DNA of 14,469 nucleotides, taken from IMG/VR virus record IMGVR_UViG_2740892028_000014, one strand, 5' to 3'. The translations under genes and the position numbers were made by a program. Of this stretch, positions 1,482 to 13,903 are shown one piece after another. The notes below the pieces were generated by a model. That model had not been told where the DNA came from, searched no databases, and saw only the letters and a list, made by a program, of their open reading frames with translations. The DNA comes from a virus. Its lineage: Duplodnaviria > Heunggongvirae > Uroviricota > Caudoviricetes. How positions within the stretch are numbered: position 1 is the first letter of the stretch; every line of letters begins with the position of its first letter.

Positions 1482-1656
1482 GCCGACAGGAACACCACAA
1501 CCTCAAAAACGCTACAAAGATGCCCACGGAGCACTCGTTACTGTCGAAAGCGTGTCTCACAACCGAGTGACGTTTTATCGCGACGGGTATCAATCGCCAT
1601 GCGTACAACCGCTGGCGCGCTTCATGAAGGAGTTCGCGGAGGTTAACAAATGCTAA
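1474..1656 (+). CDS. small hypothetical protein, 60 aa (internal ATG of track ORF 1387..1656)
   Basis: ATG at 1474 overlaps the stop of the preceding gene (ATGTTTAA); its own stop overlaps the next ATG at 1650. Fits the coupled-gene pattern of the operon. Confidence 0.45.
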   Translation: MFKPTGTPQPQKRYKDAHGALVTVESVSHNRVTFYRDGYQSPCVQPLARFMKEFAEVNKC

Positions 1657-2717
1657 CCGTCCAGAAGAAGATATTTTCACTGGCTGGTATGTCGCCAAAA
1701 TCCAGCAATATGACGGCAAAATCAGTTATTAATACAGCAGATACAAGCAAAGTTTATCATTTGCTGGTGGTCGGAACGGATGCCTTAACCATACCAGAAA
1801 TCTCGGGCGATGATATTAGCATTGAGAAGGTCAGCGGCTGCGCCAGAAAATTTCTGGTCGTAGATGATGTCTTCCGCTCGTGTAGTGACTCCACAAAAAC
1901 ATTCGTCCACGCGCGTGACGTTAACGAAATGAGCGCGATGTACTGTGCTTCTGGTTCTTCCAATAGTGAGTTTTCGGAGTCCATAAAAAAGAGCTTGCCG
2001 TTATGCGGCAACACGGTTTATGGTTATAAGGCACCTCATAAAACGGGTGCCGGGATTGGCGTCCTGAAAATTCTGAAGGCGACATATGACGCGCCGAGCG
2101 TCTTTTTTTATGTCGTAGGTCTGACTCACCCATTTTTTGGGCGTTGGTGTATAATCCAGCGCCTTTGTCAATCAATGGTGGCTCAGGCGGGGGCTTCTTC
2201 GGAAGCGCCGGTATCCTTCAGAGCCGGTTACGCCAACCCTGTCTGGGCTACCACCAGCGAAATTGGCGTTTCCGGTGGTAGCGTAACCTGCTATCTGAAG
2301 GAGGCTGCCACATGCTGGCTACTACCCCTACCCAAAAACCGCAATTTATCTGGATTATCGCCGCAGTTCGCCGCGATTGCCCGACAATTACCGCCAAAAT
2401 TCATCATATTGCTGCCGAGTCTGAACGCGATGCTCGCCGTTCTCTGGTGCGCGATCACGTCTGCTTTTTTGCTGGTCGTATCCGCATGGAGGTGGCACAT
2501 GATTAAAACCTACGATGTGCATATGGATCCCCTCGAACGCACAAGCCAGATCATCACACTGACAGAAGTGATTAACGACATTCTGGTGAGCAACTCTCCC
2601 TCACGAGACGAAAGACTGAAGGCGTTACTCGCGATATTGGATCTCGCCGTTCGTGACGTTCATTTCCTGCTGGAAGGTGGACAAATGCCATGCAAAACGG
2701 GGGCAACCAATGAATAA
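1650..2717 (+). CDS. hypothetical protein; open frame of 355 aa, probably composite (see 2312..2506 and 2499..2717)
   Basis: ORF track 1650..2717. The 5' two thirds have ordinary codon usage. Between about 2300 and 2500 this frame is rich in rare codons (CTA, TTA, ATA, AGG) while another frame looks coding. True 3' end is uncertain. Confidence 0.35.
2312..2506 (+). CDS. small hypothetical protein, 64 aa (alternative frame inside 1650..2717)
   Basis: ORF track 2312..2506. Strong Shine-Dalgarno AAGGAGG 7 nt upstream of the ATG. Good codon usage. Stop overlaps the ATG at 2499 (ATGATTAA). Confidence 0.45.
   Translation: MLATTPTQKPQFIWIIAAVRRDCPTITAKIHHIAAESERDARRSLVRDHVCFFAGRIRMEVAHD
2499..2717 (+). 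CDS. small hypothetical protein, 72 aa ([17 protein letters not shown]...)
   Basis: ATG at 2499 preceded by GGAGGTGG. Same frame as the 3' end of track ORF 1650..2717. Stop at 2715-2717 overlaps the next ATG. Confidence 0.45.
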   Translation: MIKTYDVHMDPLERTSQIITLTEVINDILVSNSPSRDERLKALLAILDLAVRDVHFLLEGGQMPCKTGATNE

Positions 2718-3989: not shown

Positions 3990-6341
3990 ATGCGAAACAT
4001 TGATCTTATCCGTCAGGTTATCAGTGCGTCTGAAAACAACTGGCCTCATGTGCTGGGCTGCCTGAACATAAATGTCCCTGACTCTCCGCGCCGTCATGCT
4101 CCCTGCCCTGCATGTGGGGGCAAAGATCGATTCCGGTTCGACGACAACGGGCGCGGTAGCTTCATCTGTAATCAGTGCGGCGCTGGTGATGGGCTGGATT
4201 TAATTAAACGCGTAAATAACTGCGACACAACAGAGGCGGCGCTGCTTGCCGCTGATGTTCTGGGTATTGATTACCGGACAACGGAAACACCAGAAGCCAC
4301 CAGCCAGAAACGGGAACAACTGGAAACCGAGCGCCAGCGACGCGAACAGGAGCGCCTGAAAAGGGCAGAGAAGGACGAACAACAAAGACGGGATACGTTT
4401 TCCCGTCAGTTTGATGACATGCGCAGAAAGGCTGTAAACGGCAAATCTGATTATCTGGTTGCGAAAGGGGTAGGTGATTTTACATTCCCCGTGTTGCCCG
4501 ATGGATCTCTGTTGCTGGCGCTGGTGGATAAATCCGGCGCAGTCACAGCAGCACAGACTATTACCTCACATGGTGAAAAAAGACTCCTGACAGGTTCGGC
4601 AAAGCAGGGGGCATATCACGCCATAAACGCACAGAAACGACCTCACAGCATCATAATTGCTGAGGGGGTGGCTACCGCCCTGTCGTGCCATTTAATTCGC
4701 CCTGACGCAATGACAGTGGCAGCAATCGACGCTGGCAACCTGTTGCCAGTAGCGGAAGTCATGTGCAGAACATATCCACAGGCACAAATCATCATTGCCG
4801 CAGATAACGATCACCAGCAAGGAAACTCCGAAAGTGGAGGGATCAACACGGGGAAAGATGCCGCAGAGAGGGCCGCTATTTCCGTAGCTGGCTGGGTGTC
4901 TCTGCCACCGACTGACTATAAAGCCGACTGGAACGACTATCACCAACAACACGGGCTGGCGGCAGCCACAGCAGCATTTAAAGATTCGATGTACCAGCCA
5001 CGGGGGAAAGGGGCGCAGGTGAAAAATCACAAACAGCCAGTCGGGGCGCTGAATGAGATCAGTTCTGGCGAGGTGTTAAGCGATGATGAAATTGCTGTCC
5101 TCGAAGAAATCAACCGGACGTTTACGCATGTCACCATTGGCGGGAAACACAAGGTGGTGTCGCTAAAGCCTTCTCAAACCGGCGGTGTATCGCACGTTTT
5201 CGAGGATTTATCACAATTTCAGCATTATTTTCATCATAAACCGAGAGTCGCCAGAAAGCTGGCGGGATCGGCGTGGCTGTCATGGAGTGGGAAGAACTAC
5301 AAGCCAGGAGGCGTAGGATTTTATCCAGTACCAGACAAATGCCCTGACGATGTTTTTAATCTGTATGAGGGGCTGGCACTGGAACCAATTGAAGGAGATT
5401 GCACGGTATACCTTAATCACCTGTTGCAGGTTGTCTGTGCCGGTAATGAAGAGGCATACCAATATCTTATCCAGTGGATGGCGCACATTATCCAAAAGCC
5501 TGATGAAAAACCGTCCGTGGCAATCGTGATGAAATCTGTCCCGGGCACAGGGAAAGGCACAACGGTTAAACCGCTGCTGCAAATACTGGGGCAGTACGCC
5601 GCCCACATTAACGGGGCGGGACATATTTCAGGGCGCTTCAATTCAATACTTGCTAACAAGCTACTGGTATTTGCTGACGAAGTGACGATCCACAAGCCGT
5701 CTGAAGCTGACAGACTTAAAGCGATTATTAGCGAACCGACGTTTAACCTTGAGCGCAAGGGAATTGATGCTGAACCAATGCCGAATTTTGCCCGGTTGAT
5801 ATTTGCCAGTAACAGCACACAGGTATTACAGGCAGGGATAAGAGAGCGCCGCTATCTCGTGCTTGAGCCATCTCCTGAAAAAGCACAGAGCCGGGAGTAT
5901 TTTGATCGGCTGTACAGTTGGCTTAATGATGGCGGTGCCGCAAAGTTGCTTTGGCATCTTAAAGGGGTGGATCTCTCAGGTTTTGACCCTCAACGAGCGC
6001 CACAGACCGATGCCTTACGTGAAGAAATCTTGCTGGGGCTGTCTGGCGTTGAATTGTTTCTTTATGGCGAGCTAATCAATGAACCTCCGTTTAATGGCGA
6101 AGTCCGTTTGTTTGCAAAGGATATGGTTAGTCGATTTGTAGCGTGGTCGCTTGAGCGTGGGGAAAAGCTTAAAGAGCCAGCAGCCAGATCACTACTGGGT
6201 AAATCACTTGCACAAATGGGGCTGGTGAAGCATGGAAGACCAGACCGAGGGAATGGCGTGTTCTACGAACTACCAGAGGTCGGAGTTCTACAGGCTGCGT
6301 TTGCCCGTCTGATCGGTATGGGGGGTTATGATGTTTTTTAA
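3990..6341 (+). CDS. DNA primase-helicase, P4 alpha / D5-like: zinc ribbon + Toprim primase + P-loop NTPase
   Basis: ORF track 3990..6341, 783 aa. Zinc-ribbon motif CPACGGKDRFRF...FICNQCG near the N-terminus. Toprim-like acidic motifs IIIAEGVATA and IIIAADNDHQQ. Walker A VMKSVPGTGKGT and Walker B LLVFADEV in the C-terminal half. ACGGGGG upstream of the ATG. Confidence 0.9.
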   Translation: MRNIDLIRQVISASENNWPHVLGCLNINVPDSPRRHAPCPACGGKDRFRFDDNGRGSFICNQCGAGDGLDLIKRVNNCDTTEAALLAADVLGIDYRTTETPEATSQKREQLETERQRREQERLKRAEKDEQQRRDTFSRQFDDMRRKAVNGKSDYLVAKGVGDFTFPVLPDGSLLLALVDKSGAVTAAQTITSHGEKRLLTGSAKQGAYHAINAQKRPHSIIIAEGVATALSCHLIRPDAMTVAAIDAGNLLPVAEVMCRTYPQAQIIIAADNDHQQGNSESGGINTGKDAAERAAISVAGWVSLPPTDYKADWNDYHQQHGLAAATAAFKDSMYQPRGKGAQVKNHKQPVGALNEISSGEVLSDDEIAVLEEINRTFTHVTIGGKHKVVSLKPSQTGGVSHVFEDLSQFQHYFHHKPRVARKLAGSAWLSWSGKNYKPGGVGFYPVPDKCPDDVFNLYEGLALEPIEGDCTVYLNHLLQVVCAGNEEAYQYLIQWMAHIIQKPDEKPSVAIVMKSVPGTGKGTTVKPLLQILGQYAAHINGAGHISGRFNSILANKLLVFADEVTIHKPSEADRLKAIISEPTFNLERKGIDAEPMPNFARLIFASNSTQVLQAGIRERRYLVLEPSPEKAQSREYFDRLYSWLNDGGAAKLLWHLKGVDLSGFDPQRAPQTDALREEILLGLSGVELFLYGELINEPPFNGEVRLFAKDMVSRFVAWSLERGEKLKEPAARSLLGKSLAQMGLVKHGRPDRGNGVFYELPEVGVLQAAFARLIGMGGYDVF

Positions 6342-8078: not shown

Positions 8079-8252
8079 ATGGCTATTTCAGTAAAGCCAG
8101 TATTGATAAGTGAGAAGCAAATGGAAGCGATAAAGAAAATTCAGGAGGAGCAGCGTAAAAAATCAGAGGTAGGAGTTGCGCCAACGATCCACGAAATTGC
8201 TCGGGGATTAATGGATAAGGCGCTGGCTTACACTTTAACTGGACGTGGGTAA
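8079..8252 (+). CDS. small protein, 57 aa, possible ribbon-helix-helix-like regulator
   Basis: Below the track length cut-off; read directly: ATG at 8079, AAGGGGG 5-11 nt upstream, stop TAA 8250-8252. Protein MAISVKPVLISEKQMEAIKKIQEEQRKKSEVGVAPTIHEIARGLMDKALAYTLTGRG has a strand-helix-helix layout. Fold call is inference. Confidence 0.5.
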   Translation: MAISVKPVLISEKQMEAIKKIQEEQRKKSEVGVAPTIHEIARGLMDKALAYTLTGRG

Positions 8253-8256
8253 ATCA

Positions 8257-9600
8257 ATGGCTACGTGGCAACAGGGTATTAATTCTGGTGGTTTTCTGGC
8301 TGGCATCGGTACGCAAAATGAGAATGCGCCAAAGGCAAGCGACATTAACGCAACGCTTGGTCTGATCCGCGAAAACAATGAACTGGCTCGATCAGGTGCA
8401 AATAACGTTGCTCTGACAGGTCTTCGAGGTCTGGCTGGAGTTGCTGATATTTATAAGCAGCAGCAACAGCAGGAGCGTAAAGCGGCATTCCAGAAAGGCT
8501 ATGCGGATGCTTATGCGTCCGGCGACAGAGAGAAGATGCGTAATCTGGTTACTGAATTTCCTGATGAGTTTGAGGAAGTCAGAAAGGGAATGGGGTATAT
8601 CGATGATGCCCAGAGGGATGATTTTGGCAATCTGGCGCTTAAAGCACAGGTGGCCTCATCGCTGGGCGCTGGCGCATTTGGTCGATTCATGATGGACAAT
8701 GAGAAGGAAATGCGCCGCCTTGGCGTTCCGCCAGAAGTCATCGCTGACATGCATTTTAACGACCCGCAGGGCTTCCAGCACTTTGCAGGTAATCTGGCAC
8801 TATTTTCTCTCGGTCATGAGAAGTACTTCGATATCAAAGATCGAATGGAAGGTCGTCGACTTGAGCAAGGGCGACTGGATGAAAGTATGCGTCAGGCTGA
8901 CATGGAGAACGCGAGAGGATGGGCAAATATCCAGAACGCTCAACTAGACAGGGCTCAGCGAGCACAAATTCACTCAGATGAGATGGGATTGAAGCTAATG
9001 GAGCTGGGGCAAAAAGGTAAGCCGTCAGCAGACTTAATTAAGGGATTAAATTCTGATATTACCAATTTTGGCAAAAATTATAACTCTGTCAGAGCGGCAG
9101 CAAACTCTCTGCAAGCCCTTAGCAAGGTAAATACTGGCGCTGCCCAACTTGGGATTATCTTCAACTACATGAAATCTCTTGACCCGCAGTCAGTCGTTCG
9201 TGAAGGCGAACAGGTTCAGGTAATGCGGTCTGATGGCATATGGGGACAAATCAAAGGATACATAGACCAGCTTAATGCTGGAAACGGCCTGTCGCAGGAG
9301 GCAAAGGATAACATTGTTAACGCCGCAAAAATCAACGCCAATGCTATGGGGCAGCAGTTTAACCAGCAGGTTGACGAATATCTCGATACATATGGAGAAA
9401 CCATTCCTCAGGGGCTAAGAAAAAGCCTTGAAAGAAGGAAAGCGAAGCTATTTGACGATGTTTCCGGGCAGCCTACATCACAGGCTGGCACTGGGCAGGC
9501 AAAAGCGGCAACCGGAGGAATATCAGAAGGCGCAACGGCAACCAACCCTAAAACTGGTCAGAAAATTATTTACAGGAACGGAAAATGGCAGCAAATGTAA
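8257..9600 (+). CDS. hypothetical Ala/Gln/Gly-rich protein, about 447 aa; no enzymatic motif seen
   Basis: ORF track 8245..9600 uses a GTG; the first ATG is at 8257 (MATWQQ...). The upstream small-gene stop overlaps this start region. Poly-Q run and predicted helical, low-complexity sequence. Last 16 nt overlap the next gene. Confidence 0.7.
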   Translation: MATWQQGINSGGFLAGIGTQNENAPKASDINATLGLIRENNELARSGANNVALTGLRGLAGVADIYKQQQQQERKAAFQKGYADAYASGDREKMRNLVTEFPDEFEEVRKGMGYIDDAQRDDFGNLALKAQVASSLGAGAFGRFMMDNEKEMRRLGVPPEVIADMHFNDPQGFQHFAGNLALFSLGHEKYFDIKDRMEGRRLEQGRLDESMRQADMENARGWANIQNAQLDRAQRAQIHSDEMGLKLMELGQKGKPSADLIKGLNSDITNFGKNYNSVRAAANSLQALSKVNTGAAQLGIIFNYMKSLDPQSVVREGEQVQVMRSDGIWGQIKGYIDQLNAGNGLSQEAKDNIVNAAKINANAMGQQFNQQVDEYLDTYGETIPQGLRKSLERRKAKLFDDVSGQPTSQAGTGQAKAATGGISEGATATNPKTGQKIIYRNGKWQQM

Positions 9601-11702
9601 TCTTACCGGAAGGTTTTGTGCTCGATGAACAACCTGATAACTCACAGTTTCCTGATAGTTCACAGCTTCCTGATGGTTTTGTGCTTGATGCCCAACCAGA
9701 ACAGCAGCAATCACCTTTGGTTTCACCATGGGAAAATTCCAGACAGGAAAATGTTGTTAATAATGCTAACGGTTTCGACCGTTTTATGTATGGCGTTCTC
9801 AGTGGATTGATGGATGTTGGTAAAGGTGTTGGCCTGTTTCAGGATATGACACCAGAAGAGCAAGCCGCAATTCAGTCTCTACAGCAGAAGTTAGCGGCAA
9901 AACCATCAACCGCACAAGATGTTGGTGAGTTTGTTGGACAAGCAGCGCCATTTGTTAGTGGTGGTGGGATTATTTCTCAGGTTCCGAAAGGTGCGGCAAG
10001 GCTGGCTGCCGCCGCAGGGCTTGGTGCTGGAGAAGGGGCTATTGTAGCCAATGGAACAAATAGCGATGTTGCTTCCGGCGCTGCTATTGGCGCTGTGGCT
10101 GGCCCTGTAGCCGAACTTGCTGGCCCTGCAATTAATAAAATAGCTGGGAAATTAACCAAGAAGAATGTTTCTTCGATTCCAGATATTGAGGGGATTACTC
10201 CTGCCGAAGAGAAAATTCGTAAGTTATCTGCACAAGGCAACCCAAATCTTGCCTCTTCGCTTGAAGGGCTAGATCTAAAACCTCAGAAAGAAATTGTTGA
10301 GGCTGCAAATAGGCTTCATGTTGATTCAGTTCTTCCTTCTCATTTTTCAGGAAATGAGCAATACCAAGCTGTAGAGCAAGCCCTAAAGTCACGGACAGGA
10401 TCAGCGTTAAAAGCTCAAGAAGATAAAGCAATAAGCGAATTAGCCTCTAGTGCTGGCAAGATAATCGATGATGTTGCTGGTGCGCCAGATGCGTTAGCTA
10501 TGAGCGAAAAATATATTTATCAGATAAATAGTAGAATGGAAGCACTAAAAAACCGTAGTGATCAGTTATATAAACGTGTTGATTCCGCTCTATCACCAAG
10601 AACAAAAGTCGAAGCAAATAACACAAGCACTATGCTGGAAAAAATCGCTGATGATTTAGGTGGGTGGGATAATCTTGACCCAATAGAAAAGCGAGTTTTT
10701 ACAGCAATAAACCCCGGCCCAGATAGCATCCTAACGTATGCAAATTTAAACAGGCAAAGGCGTTTAGTTGGTGATGCCCTAAATAAAAAGCAGGGGCCAT
10801 ACAAAGATGCTGATAAAGAAGCGCTATCAAGACTATATGGAGCTTTAGCTGAAGACCAAAAATCTGTCTTATCCAATACTGGATACTTGCGAGATTTCGA
10901 AGTCGCACAACGCCTTGTAGCTATGAGAAAAAACTTAGAAAGGCAAATGGTAAATCTTCGCGGGAAAACACTTAATGGGGATATAGCGTATAAAGTAACG
11001 AATTCTCTTCAATCTATGGCAAAAGGTGATGCGAGAGGGTTTCGTGAGATTATGCAAAATACTCCATCAAGAACATTGCGAAGGGAGCTAGTAGGAACAG
11101 CATTAAGAGATATGCTTTCCTCTGGGAAGCGCGGGGCCGACTTTAATCCATCTGGCTTTGCAGATTGGTGGCAAAACTTGCAACACAGTGGACAGCTAAA
11201 GACTTTGGCTGAACATTTGCCAAAAGAAACAATGAGCGGACTATATGATGTATACAAAGTTGCCAGAGCAATAAAAAATGCTAAAGCGCATGAAATATCT
11301 ACTGGTAAGCTGAATGAGTTTGTAAACAGATTTAATCGGGTAACAGCTCCATACGAACTAGCAGCAAAACACATTCAAAAAATAGGCACGATGATAGGCG
11401 CTCATTTTGGATCGCTTGGAGCCATTGCTGGGGCTGATATTGGAGCAAGATTGGCGAGTAAAGCTCGATTAGCTGGTGGAGCAGGGGCGGCTGATGCTGC
11501 GGATAAATTAATTGCCTCGCCAGCCTTCCAGAGCGCAGTAAAAAATCTACACGGAAAAGCGCCTGGGCACATTGTTGATTCACGTATCAGGCGCTCCCCT
11601 CAATGGAAGAGTTTTTTTAACTCTCTTCCTGAACAGGAAAAACGGACCATCGCCCGACTGGGCATCATTACTTGGCTATCTAATGATCCAGATAATGACT
11701 AG
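9585..11702 (+). CDS. hypothetical 705-aa protein with N-terminal tandem repeat and Gly/Ala-rich zipper-like segments
   Basis: ORF track 9585..11702. Tandem peptide repeat LPEGFVLDEQP / LPDGFVLDAQP, mirrored in the DNA at about 9600-9700. Gly/Ala stretches such as GAARLAAAAGLGAGEGAIV and GSLGAIAGADIGARLA. No Walker or nuclease motifs seen. Confidence 0.75.
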   Translation: MAANVILPEGFVLDEQPDNSQFPDSSQLPDGFVLDAQPEQQQSPLVSPWENSRQENVVNNANGFDRFMYGVLSGLMDVGKGVGLFQDMTPEEQAAIQSLQQKLAAKPSTAQDVGEFVGQAAPFVSGGGIISQVPKGAARLAAAAGLGAGEGAIVANGTNSDVASGAAIGAVAGPVAELAGPAINKIAGKLTKKNVSSIPDIEGITPAEEKIRKLSAQGNPNLASSLEGLDLKPQKEIVEAANRLHVDSVLPSHFSGNEQYQAVEQALKSRTGSALKAQEDKAISELASSAGKIIDDVAGAPDALAMSEKYIYQINSRMEALKNRSDQLYKRVDSALSPRTKVEANNTSTMLEKIADDLGGWDNLDPIEKRVFTAINPGPDSILTYANLNRQRRLVGDALNKKQGPYKDADKEALSRLYGALAEDQKSVLSNTGYLRDFEVAQRLVAMRKNLERQMVNLRGKTLNGDIAYKVTNSLQSMAKGDARGFREIMQNTPSRTLRRELVGTALRDMLSSGKRGADFNPSGFADWWQNLQHSGQLKTLAEHLPKETMSGLYDVYKVARAIKNAKAHEISTGKLNEFVNRFNRVTAPYELAAKHIQKIGTMIGAHFGSLGAIAGADIGARLASKARLAGGAGAADAADKLIASPAFQSAVKNLHGKAPGHIVDSRIRRSPQWKSFFNSLPEQEKRTIARLGIITWLSNDPDND

Positions 11703-13615: not shown

Positions 13616-13903
13616 ATGATAAGGGACAGGAAAGCTGAAGAGCTGGAGTCAAAAGGGCTATACCGGAGAGCTGCCGCACGATGGGCAGAAGTCATGATGC
13701 TGGCAGATGGCGATAAAGAACGTGAACATGCAGCAAACAGACGCTCTGAATGTATCCGTAAGGCGGCACGCCCACCAGCAACTACAGACAGATTCGGAGA
13801 TTTAAGACAGGCAGTTAAGCGGACTCATTCGGCTCTTGGTATGGATGAGGAAGCGAGAGGGTACTTCAGGCGTTATCGCGATAAAGATTGCCAGAGACAG
13901 TAA
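13616..13903 (+). CDS. PerC-family transcriptional regulator-like protein, 95 aa
   Basis: ORF track 13616..13903. N-terminus AEELESKGLYRRAAARWAEVM matches the PerC-type signature as I recall it. TATAAT at 13597-13602 just upstream; GAGAGG before the ATG. Confidence 0.65.
   Translation: MIRDRKAEELESKGLYRRAAARWAEVMMLADGDKEREHAANRRSECIRKAARPPATTDRFGDLRQAVKRTHSALGMDEEARGYFRRYRDKDCQRQ

Follow-up and report, generated by a model that had tools for sequence, protein, structure and literature searches.

A probable P4-like immunity region within a 355-codon open reading frame of a satellite prophage

The region spanning positions 1650 to 2717 of the window, i.e. of the whole stretch of 14,469 nucleotides analysed (IMG/VR record IMGVR_UViG_2740892028_000014), quite probably houses the immunity and early control of a P4-like (PICI-like) satellite prophage, with a long frame resembling P4 eta that would shield transcripts. 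Sequence comparison shows homology with the PLE-seqA-cI-seqC-kil/eta region of P4 and a relationship with the c4-icd module of P1. The locus is a known system, and only a minor variation, a frame offset of one base, is new. The evidence consists of the elements themselves and their homology, of covariation within the RNA and between its loops and their targets, of the avoidance of stop codons and of the geometry of the frames among relatives. The same DNA had been described in an earlier note as a frame conflict, to be explained by three genes, by one frameshifted gene or by a sequencing indel; the long frame is indeed no single ordinary gene, and separate kil and orf72 genes and a one-base offset are present, while a sequencing indel is very improbable.

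Results

The long open reading frame and the genes nested within it

The long open reading frame (ORF) starts with the ATG at 1650, preceded by a Shine-Dalgarno sequence (SD), GGAGG, at 1638-1642, and runs on the plus strand free of stops until the TAA at 2715-2717, as had been claimed, for a total of 1068 nt. Its 355-aa product corresponds to the RefSeq 'ash family protein' WP_061092430.1. The frame is tightly packed between its neighbors: the stop of the upstream DUF4222 gene overlaps its ATG (ATGCTAA, 1650-1656) and the start of the next gene overlaps its stop (ATGAATAA, 2710-2717). When 1650-2714 was shuffled with preservation of composition, none of 20,000 sequences was stop-free; taken by segment, the probability of a stop-free shuffle was 0.0006 for 1650-2018, 0.014 for 2019-2309 and 0.10 for 2310-2498.

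A kil/icd-like gene of 64 aa (2312-2506, plus strand) is offset by +1 from the frame of the long ORF and would be the first gene to be translated on transcripts of the putative internal promoter described below. The strong AAGGAGG which the earlier note had assigned to this second frame is located at 2298-2304, 7 nt before the ATG at 2312. The product matches the NCBIfam model phage_ICD_like with 71.7 bits and shares 43% identity, with 22 invariant columns, with P4 Kil, which corresponds to the last 65 aa of P4 eta. The contrast in codon usage pointed out previously also holds: over 2312-2498 the kil frame is the best of the three, at +0.45 log2-odds per codon with one rare codon out of 62, while the 1650 frame reaches -0.03 with 9 rare codons out of 62, all of these scores, based on an E. 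coli codon table, being approximate. The 5' end of kil contains a C-rich, G-poor stretch on the plus strand (2320-2397; C 36%, G 15%), whose excess of C over G falls at the 99.7th percentile of all 78-nt windows in the stretch analysed. It is a candidate Rho-loading (rut) region and, as such, a candidate counterpart of timm, the Rho-dependent terminator of P4.

The terminal part of the long ORF contains, nested in frame, a further small gene, orf72 (2499-2717, plus strand). Start of orf72 and stop of kil overlap (ATGATTAA, 2499-2506), and the ATG at 2499, for which a GGAGG of its own had been correctly noted, follows this motif (2488-2492) by 6 nt. On the same approximate scale, its codon score is +0.22, against -0.55 and -0.59 for the other two frames, and its pN/pS is 0.29. 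No family match was found for orf72 in Pfam, NCBIfam or PHROG, and its possible identification as a homolog of P4 epsilon was discarded, since no similarity is present. A homolog with 41% identity (E=3e-15) is found in the Leclercia locus L021, at the same position after kil. The exact sequence of kil was found on at least 1000 contigs, and so was that of orf72. The two are real, separate genes.

Internal promoter and regulatory RNAs

Two structured RNAs and an internal promoter, absent from the earlier note, explain the locus. The putative sigma-70 promoter, homologous to P4 PLE (1995-2024, plus strand), consists of a -35 element TTGCCG (1995-2000), an 18-nt spacer and a -10 element TATGGT (2019-2024), with a predicted start near 2031. 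In an alignment of 80 loci, P4 included, GGCTTGCC followed by TA(T/G)AGT or TATGGT is kept upstream of the isrK element. A generic promoter scan did not report 1995-2024, which was recognised because of its conservation with P4.

The first RNA is a leader similar to isrK and to P4 seqA (2031-2109, plus strand), matching Rfam RF01394 over 2031-2108 with 67.8 bits (E=5e-13, gathering score 50). It contains the target sites b1, TTGGCGT at 2056-2062, and a1, TCTGAAGG at 2072-2079, and ends with an intrinsic terminator identified by both terminator scan and folding, in which a stem-loop (2088-2102) is followed by seven T residues (2103-2109). This T run is conserved in 79 of the 85 loci compared; variants with six, seven or eight T occur among relatives and database alleles.

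The second RNA belongs to the C4 family of antisense immunity RNAs, to which P4 CI also belongs (2171-2258, plus strand). It matches Rfam RF01695 with 79.9 bits (E=1e-14, gathering score 45) and scores 104 bits with a covariance model built in the present analysis. In 82 distinct sequences, 99.2% of the cells of the conserved three-helix fold are paired, and compensatory changes are observed in 17 of the 28 pairs. Its loop a' (AUCCUUCAGA, 2213-2222) and its single-stranded b' segment (UACGCCAA, 2229-2236) are complementary to the b1 and a1 sites upstream (2056-2079) and to a downstream target region corresponding to P4 seqC and to P1 b2-a2 (2263-2304, plus strand), where b2 is TTGGCGT at 2263-2269 and a2 is TCTGAAGGA at 2294-2302. 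Part of the kil SD falls within a2, which ends 9 nt before the kil ATG. The Rfam c4-a1b1 model scores only 19.1 bits in the window (gathering score 46.7), but 44-48 bits in P4 and in the loci L009 and L010.

Loop and target sequences were compared in 85 usable loci, in which kil was located by the coordinates of tblastn matches; C4 lies upstream of kil in all of them. There are 31 different a' loops and 12 different b' sequences, which in almost every case fit the a1/a2 and b1/b2 sites of their own locus, the few apparent mismatches stemming from the automatic choice of the kil start. For the 31 distinct a' loops, complementarity to a2 of the same locus averages 8.1 nt, against 4.3 nt for cross-locus pairs; the corresponding values for a1 are 7.2 and 4.5 nt. 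In close relatives, the C4 loop and its targets change together. Among near-identical relatives, about 50% of the columns are variable in C4 and in the a2/b2 spacer, and only one site in kil.

Geometry of the frames among relatives

A long ORF spanning both RNAs is present in 83 of the 85 loci, from many genera, the two without it being L075 and L048. It is in frame with kil in 75 loci. The window and seven other loci, from Escherichia and Leclercia, have it in the kil +1 frame, because in this lineage the spacer between SD and kil ATG is 1 nt shorter than in the in-frame relatives. Kil is therefore not, in the window, the in-frame terminal part of the eta-like frame, which ends 211 nt past the kil stop. 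In L021, the long ORF likewise remains in frame through the orf72 homolog.

Among the loci where long ORF and kil share a frame, and which make no use of the +1 frame of kil, more than half have this +1 frame free of stops. A dedicated selection to keep it open across kil is therefore not supported: the frame is often open anyway, and its openness needs no such explanation.

Constraint on the long frame

The eta frame is stop-free in 63 of 63 and in 68 of 71 distinct sequences, while column shuffles yielded on average 29 and 44 stop-free sequences, and at most 40 and 55, a comparison whose significance is overstated, because the shuffled null ignores phylogeny. As an internal control, the other two frames showed no excess of stop-free sequences over the column shuffles. 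In L007, two indels, of 1 and 38 nt, jointly restore the long frame, and in 54 of 78 loci the start of the long ORF overlaps the stop of the ORF upstream. The open frame is not indispensable, since L075 and L048 lack a spanning ORF and truncated alleles are found: in protein clusters of 152-179 aa the product stops shortly after the terminator, where, for example, six T instead of seven produce ...VFFMS and a stop at codon 155.

Constraint on the encoded peptide is a different matter. Over 2019-2309, the long frame has a pN/pS of 0.89 among close relatives, based on four non-independent pairs, against 0.08 for DUF4222, and protein-level purifying selection on the Phage_ASH domain was not detected in this comparison. 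Selection appears to keep the long frame open and not to preserve its peptide. For the first 49 codons (1650-1797) the pN/pS is 0.39, and some protein-level constraint may act on the N-terminus.

Protein similarities and annotation

The long ORF matches Pfam PF10554 (Phage_ASH) with 117.5 bits (gathering score 26) over aa 124-232, i.e. nt 2019-2345. The match coincides with the promoter, the isrK element, C4 and the target DNA, and with a pN/pS of about 0.9 in this region the 'family' mostly tracks a conserved RNA together with an open frame. The name itself traces to the 'ash/cI' ORF of P4, whose records label the matching DNA 'put. ash gene' and 'cI gene product (aa 1-137)', and the ORF of the window bears it in RefSeq. 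The N-terminal third (aa 1-123) has no match in Pfam, NCBIfam or PHROG; a search of 5.8 billion proteins, from whose listing the 355-aa forms are absent and which is unsuitable for frequencies, returned for the N-terminal 115 aa only close relatives, with at least 57% identity, among the matches listed. The exact 355-aa product belongs to a 90% protein cluster of 1393 sequences, and its length is shared by 13 of the 15 members listed (40 read).

Parts of the long ORF are alternative readings of other sequences. Residues 221-283 are the +1 reading of kil, and residues 50-85 are read antisense through what remains of a small-terminase gene of P22 type, terS (1770-1928, minus strand). The nucleotide core of this remnant (1798-1904) is 91% identical to coliphage terS genes, and the position homologous to the P22 pac site, taken for this comparison from PMC5261728, is the reverse complement of 1883-1904. 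Near-identical DNA is variously annotated as a 355-aa 'ash family protein', as a 300-aa 'Icd-like protein', or, by PGAP in one genome, as a partial 'ash' pseudogene plus an Icd-like gene.

Discussion

Alternative explanations

The simplest reading of the annotation, that the 355-aa ORF encodes one functional protein, of the 'Ash family' or a regulator of the Bro network, and that the RNA motifs merely happen to lie inside its coding sequence, is improbable. In its favor are the strong SD and ATG, a frame open over 1068 nt, the score of the Phage_ASH match, the size of the protein cluster, in which 13 of the 15 members listed are 355 aa long, and the pN/pS of 0.39 in codons 1-49. The domain, however, coincides exactly with promoter, isrK, C4 and targets and evolves with a pN/pS of 0.89; the remaining parts include an antisense terS fragment at aa 50-85, a +1 reading of kil rich in rare codons (9 of 62) at aa 221-283, and an N-terminus of 115 aa with close relatives only and no domain match; moreover, in 75 of the 85 relatives the frame joins kil and not orf72. 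The opposite possibility is that the long ORF has no function at all, the locus being made up of a promoter, two RNAs, kil and orf72, and that its openness is a chance by-product of descent. The kil +1 frame is often open regardless, composition alone leaves 2310-2498 stop-free with a probability of 0.10, truncated alleles occur, and PGAP sometimes reports only a partial 'ash' pseudogene and an Icd-like gene. Even so, this explanation is considered unlikely: the frame is open in 83 of 85 loci of many genera despite a hypervariable RNA cassette, the excess over the shuffle maxima concerns this frame only, the two indels of L007 together restore it, its start is coupled to the upstream gene in most of the loci evaluated (54 of 78), and a function has been published for P4 eta (PMC10111431).

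Two further explanations had been raised with the description of the frame conflict. A frameshift mutation or an assembly error might have broken an ancestral in-frame eta-kil gene, leaving a pseudogene or a sequencing indel. Alignment to homologous loci did reveal the one-base offset relative to most relatives, exactly at the kil start, where the SD-ATG spacer is shortened, and the partial pseudogene flagged by PGAP in one genome would fit. Yet the same short spacing recurs in two Leclercia loci, in an Escherichia sp. and in complete E. coli genomes that are independent of one another. In addition, kil has retained an SD and an ATG of its own and shows hardly any variation, and the shifted frame remains open up to a stop placed exactly on the start codon of the next gene, running through the orf72 homolog in L021 as well; a broken gene is thus very improbable. 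Programmed slippage, ribosomal or transcriptional, from the upstream frame into that of kil at the seven T residues has hardly any likelihood. The homopolymer within the ORF exists (at 2103-2109, not at about 2102-2108 as first reported), and its length varies from six to eight T among relatives and database alleles, but it is the U-tract following a conserved G+C hairpin, and the 1650-frame codons GTC TTT TTT TAT do not form an X XXY YYZ heptamer. A shift to the -1 frame would run into a stop codon at 2279, short of kil, and one to the +1 frame into a stop codon at 2116; furthermore, the seven T are kept in 79 of 85 loci, irrespective of the relative frame of eta and kil.

Proposed mechanism

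In P4, whose immunity region includes eta, kil, CI and seqA, translation of eta prevents termination (PMC10111431); Rho-dependent termination (timm) is under kil/eta translation and CI derives from processing by RNase P and PNPase (PMC10111431, PMC4825925, PMC3632133). The isrK RNA corresponds to seqA and C4 to CI (PMC3632133, PMC4825925), and in PICIs the C4 and isrK matches fall inside Bro-zone genes (PMC10111431). Transcription, RNA processing, Rho dependence and the shielding role are carried over from these P4 experiments in the following model.

The promoter at 1995-2024, inside the long ORF, would be constitutive and start transcripts near 2031. The leader of repressed transcripts would end at the terminator, with the seven T residues giving its U-tail, and transcripts reading through would be processed into a stable C4/CI RNA (2171-2258). 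The a' and b' segments of the latter are expected to bind two sets of targets, b1/a1 within the leader and b2/a2 shortly before kil, where pairing at a2 would mask the ribosome-binding site. With kil untranslated, its C-rich 5' end would be free for Rho, and transcription would halt before orf72, the small genes and the primase. The 355-aa frame, as the counterpart of P4 eta, would be translated only on transcripts coming from an upstream promoter; ribosomes crossing leader, C4, targets and kil would block both RNA pairing and Rho loading, and these transcripts would thereby be insensitive to immunity. In the lineage of the window, the eta-like frame would pass kil in a +1 frame which happens to be open, join orf72 and end at 2717. 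A further step would be that the out-of-frame layout was itself selected, keeping toxic Kil off the immunity-insensitive read-through polypeptide while ribosomes are kept through kil and orf72 is nested, with the length of the T run as a heritable on/off switch of read-through; this extension is doubtful and itself rather unlikely.

Comparison with known systems

The order of elements is the same as in the P4 immunity region, with a DNA similarity of 75% over the C4 region. P4 shares with the window and its relatives the pair of Rfam matches, isrK/seqA and C4/CI, and with the window the conserved promoter, the Kil homolog and the downstream primase operon; in P4 too, the start of a long ORF precedes the internal promoter, and the ORF extends across the RNAs. 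This P4 ORF, of 214 aa, ends with the 65-aa Kil sequence, whereas that of the window crosses kil in the +1 frame and has orf72 nested in it. The N-terminal part of the window ORF also far exceeds that of P4 in length: it begins 521 nt before C4 and holds the antisense terS remnant; the upstream partners are DUF4222 and AntA/B, not Vis alone, the latter represented by a gene with an AntA domain at 648-1481, upstream of the long ORF; and the small genes further downstream show no relationship to P4 epsilon. Loops and targets do not have the sequences found in P4, and a different immunity specificity is therefore implied.

The ImmI module of P1 and P7 comprises the c4 antisense RNA, the a1/b1 and a2/b2 targets, icd and ant. 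The window has in common with it the C4 RNA family and two loop-target pairs, the downstream one lying over the ribosome-binding site of the icd-like gene. It differs in that icd is followed by orf72 and not by an antirepressor gene, and in that the cargo under control consists of replication genes, as in P4. The isrK-orf45-anrP region of Salmonella Gifsy-1 (PMC4825925) also resembles the window: its isrK-type leader has an intrinsic terminator that is leaky, and beyond it come a C4-like RNA produced by processing and a translationally coupled gene. In Gifsy-1, however, an antirepressor is controlled through a small upstream ORF, orf45, and neither a kil/icd homolog nor a long spanning ORF is reported there (PMC4825925).

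Implications

The DNA of this locus is carried by at least 1300 E. coli genomes, with labels that are inconsistent across pipelines, and its defining features, the two regulatory RNAs and the promoter, go unannotated. Among complete E. coli genomes, roughly 480 have the region in full. The Phage_ASH signal is largely an RNA read in an open frame, which calls for caution in inferring protein function from families of this kind. Current understanding is not overturned by the locus. Loop and target sequences offer a simple way of sorting satellites into immunity types, 31 a' loops being present in the sample, and the frame variant provides a natural test of whether it is the translation of eta, and not its product, that matters.

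Overlapping reading frames in the 1650-2717 region

The frame starting at ATG 1650 runs without a stop to the TAA at 2715-2717, encoding 355 aa, as the earlier note had read it; none of 20,000 composition-preserving shuffles was stop-free over 1650-2714. Within it, a 64-aa ORF lies in a second frame at 2312-2506, behind an AAGGAGG at 2298-2304. Over 2312-2498 the second frame scores +0.45 log2-odds per codon with one rare codon in 62, while the 1650 frame scores -0.03 with nine, values which are approximate. The conflict in codon usage described in the note is confirmed, as is a further ATG at 2499, in the original frame, preceded by GGAGG at 2488-2492.

The 64-aa ORF matches the NCBIfam model "host cell division inhibitor Icd-like" (71.7 bits), and its product is 43% identical to the Kil protein of phage P4, with 22 invariant columns; it is referred to as kil. 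A blastn search of 1990-2530 against phage records also matched P4, in a region labelled "put. ash gene (aa 1-137)" and "cI gene product (aa 1-137)" in old records; the PHROGs name of the Kil family, 'transcriptional repressor', is a legacy of that cI annotation. The P4 region is crossed by a 214-aa ORF, ending MATTLTPSHPEF...SLVRDY..., which is eta; its terminal part is Kil, a truncated form of Eta, and a constitutive promoter lies inside eta (PMC10111431). Bro-zone (Phage_ASH) genes of Gram-negative PICIs have likewise been found to contain C4 and isrK matches (PMC10111431).

Leader RNA, promoter and terminator

An Rfam scan of the whole window gave two strong matches, both on the + strand inside the long ORF: isrK (RF01394) at 2031-2108 (67.8 bits) and the C4 antisense RNA (RF01695) at 2171-2258 (79.9 bits). 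Both are detected in P4 in the same order, and correspond to P4 seqA and to the P4 CI RNA, respectively (PMC3632133; PMC4825925); CI pairs with seqA and seqC, leading to premature termination (PMC4825925). Just upstream of the isrK-like leader, a predicted internal promoter (-35 TTGCCG at 1995-2000, -10 TATGGT at 2019-2024) is conserved with P4, the shared consensus being GGCTTGCC, 17-18 nt, TATAGT. The order of the two RNAs, the promoter, the Kil homolog and the spanning ORF are thus common to the window and the P4 immunity region; eta, however, is in frame with kil in P4, whereas the long ORF of the window reads kil in the +1 frame.

The isrK alignment is closed by a G+C hairpin (2088-2102), also returned by a terminator scan, and by a run of seven T residues. 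The run, proposed earlier as a slippery site, is indeed present, at 2103-2109, but since the hairpin directly precedes it, it is the U-tract of an intrinsic terminator. Its length varies in public sequences: among 85 related loci it is T7 in 79, T8 in three and T6 in two. In T6 alleles the long ORF ends at codon 155 (...VFFMS*), as T6 in place of T7 would yield; one T6 locus (L075) lacks a spanning ORF. Truncated alleles are also known as protein clusters of 152-179 aa, several of which end in ...VFFMS*. The polymorphism may be genuine variation in homopolymer length or may come from assembly error.

Between the leader terminator and C4 a further hairpin (2139-2164) was noticed, whose stem co-varies in relatives. 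In the lineage of the window its loop, TGTATAAT (2148-2155), is a perfect extended -10 located about 15 nt upstream of C4, and could serve as a promoter for C4 alone. A 38-nt deletion has removed the hairpin from the related locus L007, and conservation of the loop sequence does not extend to other genera.

The C4 RNA and its targets

Two sites are complementary to a', the loop of the second C4 hairpin (AUCCUUCAGA, 2213-2222): TCTGAAGG in the leader (a1, 2072-2079) and TCTGAAGGA (a2, 2294-2302), the latter overlapping the kil Shine-Dalgarno. For the unpaired segment b' (UACGCCAA, 2229-2236) the complementary sequence is TTGGCGT, present at 2056-2062 (b1) and 2263-2269 (b2).

Related loci were collected, 78 of them from other Enterobacterales by Kil alignment, and searched with a covariance model trained on seven C4 copies. 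C4 was found upstream of kil in all 85 usable loci; one further locus has its upstream DNA cut off. In the alignment 99.2% of cells pair, with compensatory changes in 17 of 28 pairs. The loci contain 31 distinct a' loops and 12 distinct b' segments, and a' fits the targets of its own locus (mean complementarity 8.1 nt for a2 and 7.2 nt for a1) better than those of other loci (4.3 and 4.5 nt).

In the satellites L005-L008, 88-99% identical overall, about 50% of the columns are variable in C4 and the a2/b2 spacer (2171-2311), with loop and targets varying jointly; the window, for instance, has TCTGAAGG(A) where L005 has TCGAATGG(A). The pattern resembles exchange or diversification of an immunity cassette. 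Over 2312-2498, kil shows one variable site in 187 nt and zero synonymous differences in the same satellites, against a pS of about 0.03-0.07 in neighbouring genes; such near-invariance might come from dual-frame use, from a rut/terminator function or from a recombination anchor.

Frame offset at kil and orf72

In 75 loci, including P4, the spanning ORF and kil share a frame; in eight the ORF runs in the kil +1 frame, namely in the window, in five relatives from E. coli, in an Escherichia sp. and in two Leclercia. The offset maps to the spacer between Shine-Dalgarno and ATG, one base shorter in the window (GCC AC ATG CTG) than elsewhere (GCC GCT ATG CTG or GCC A(C/T)C ATG GCT). More than half of all loci have no stop in the kil +1 frame, so the run through kil needs no special explanation.

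Downstream, the long frame joins orf72 (2499-2717) in frame, and its stop at 2715-2717 overlies the start codon of the next gene (ATGAATAA). Several features mark orf72 as a real gene: a GGAGG and an ATG overlapping the kil stop (ATGATTAA), the best codon score among the three frames and a pN/pS of 0.29. A homolog with 41% identity occupies the same position in Leclercia (L021), where it too is crossed by the long frame.

Nature of the long frame

Three genes, one frameshifted gene or a sequencing indel had been offered in the earlier note. Sequencing error is contradicted by databases: RefSeq WP_061092430.1, named "ash family protein", is identical to the 355-aa product, and the 90% cluster to which it belongs holds 1393 sequences; of 15 listed members, out of 40 read, 13 have this length. 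Nor is the long frame an ordinary protein gene. The only Pfam match of its product, Phage_ASH at aa 124-232, corresponds to nt 2019-2345, exactly the RNA-bearing stretch; aa 50-85 are an antisense reading of a P22-type terS fragment and aa 221-283 are kil read in the +1 frame. For the N-terminal 115 aa there is no family match in Pfam, NCBIfam or PHROG, and only close relatives are among the matches listed. Over 2019-2309 the pN/pS of the 1650 frame is 0.89 among close relatives (a small sample of four non-independent pairs), compared with 0.08 for DUF4222 and 0.27-0.29 for orf72 and orf64.

Nor is the open frame simply a matter of chance. An ORF running from 140 nt or more before C4 to beyond its end is present in 83 of the 85 loci. 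Over the 141 nt that separate the C4 start from the kil start, all 63 distinct sequences are free of stops in the eta-like frame, whereas column shuffles leave 29 stop-free on average and 40 at most, and the other two frames are stop-free in one and three sequences; the isrK block is stop-free in 68 of 71 (shuffle mean 44, maximum 55). The contrast between frames is the more reliable part of the test, because the shuffle null ignores shared ancestry. In L007 a 1-nt deletion and the 38-nt one jointly restore the long frame. Of 78 distinct loci, 54 have its start overlapping the stop of an upstream ORF; the window shares ATGCTAA in this way with DUF4222, with GGAGG before it. Taken together, these findings fit the role published for P4 eta, where translating the region matters and the peptide does not. 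The open frame is not indispensable, as truncated alleles occur.

Annotation of the locus

On near-identical DNA (four mismatches, no indels) PGAP reports either an ash protein of 355 aa or an Icd-like protein of 64 aa alongside a partial ash pseudogene, while in-frame long ORFs of relatives, 241 or 303 aa long, are named "Icd-like protein". RefSeq also has an ash protein of 417 aa, in which a 1-nt deletion at 2691 has created a fusion with the next gene. The inconsistency was seen across L001, L002, L005, L009 and L010; in L009, a neighbouring 87-aa gene is named 'nicotinic acetylcholine receptor subunit beta'.

Island context and terS remnant

The window is a satellite-type island, carrying genes for AlpA (1-204), an AntA-domain protein (648-1481), DUF4222 (1474-1656), a primase with zinc ribbon, Toprim and DUF5906 domains (3990-6341) and a PerC regulator (13616-13903). 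Downstream of the primase lie a P22 injectosome translocase-like gene (8245-9600; Pfam Inj_translocase, E=3.5e-73) and the second gene of an ejection/injection pair (9585-11702), named by PGAP 'phage DNA ejection protein' and 'injection protein'; such P22-type genes are unusual cargo in a small satellite.

The P22-type small terminase (terS) fragment lies at 1770-1928 on the - strand, antisense inside the long ORF. Its nucleotide core (1798-1904) is 91% identical to terS of coliphages EC.P3, IME10 and others, with a 27-aa stretch identical. The homology starts at the position corresponding to the P22 pac site, and the reverse complement of 1883-1904 (GAATGTTTTTGTGGAGTCACTA) matches P22 pac (GAAGATTTATCTGAAGTCGTTA; PMC5261728) at 15 of 22 positions. 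Taken with the island's P22-like ejection genes, this sequence resemblance suggests that the fragment mimics pac for a helper phage of P22 type.

In a 99.8% identical locus (L089, NZ_CP097724.1 3612000-3641000) the satellite lies at tRNA-Thr beside proA, adjoining an integrase, with an integrase fragment, the gene for the vat autotransporter toxin (vat toxin island) and an IS1 remnant coming after the satellite; from these flanks, the island appears to be composite.

Proposed regulation

The mechanism proposed is modelled throughout on P4. In the prophage, the internal promoter would yield the leader, and read-through and processing would yield C4 RNA. Pairing of C4 with b1/a1 and b2/a2 would mask the kil ribosome-binding site, and the untranslated, C-rich 5' part of kil (36% C and 15% G over 2320-2397, the 99.7th percentile of the window) would allow Rho termination before orf72, other small genes and the primase. 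Transcripts from an upstream promoter would be translated without a break, through the chain of overlapping genes and the 355-aa frame, and would therefore escape this control.

The observations of the earlier note hold, and its interpretation was right in part: the locus is a known regulatory system of P4 type, related to P1 c4-icd, in a minor frame variant. Its main value lies in a lesson for annotation and in a natural test of the "translation, not product" idea.
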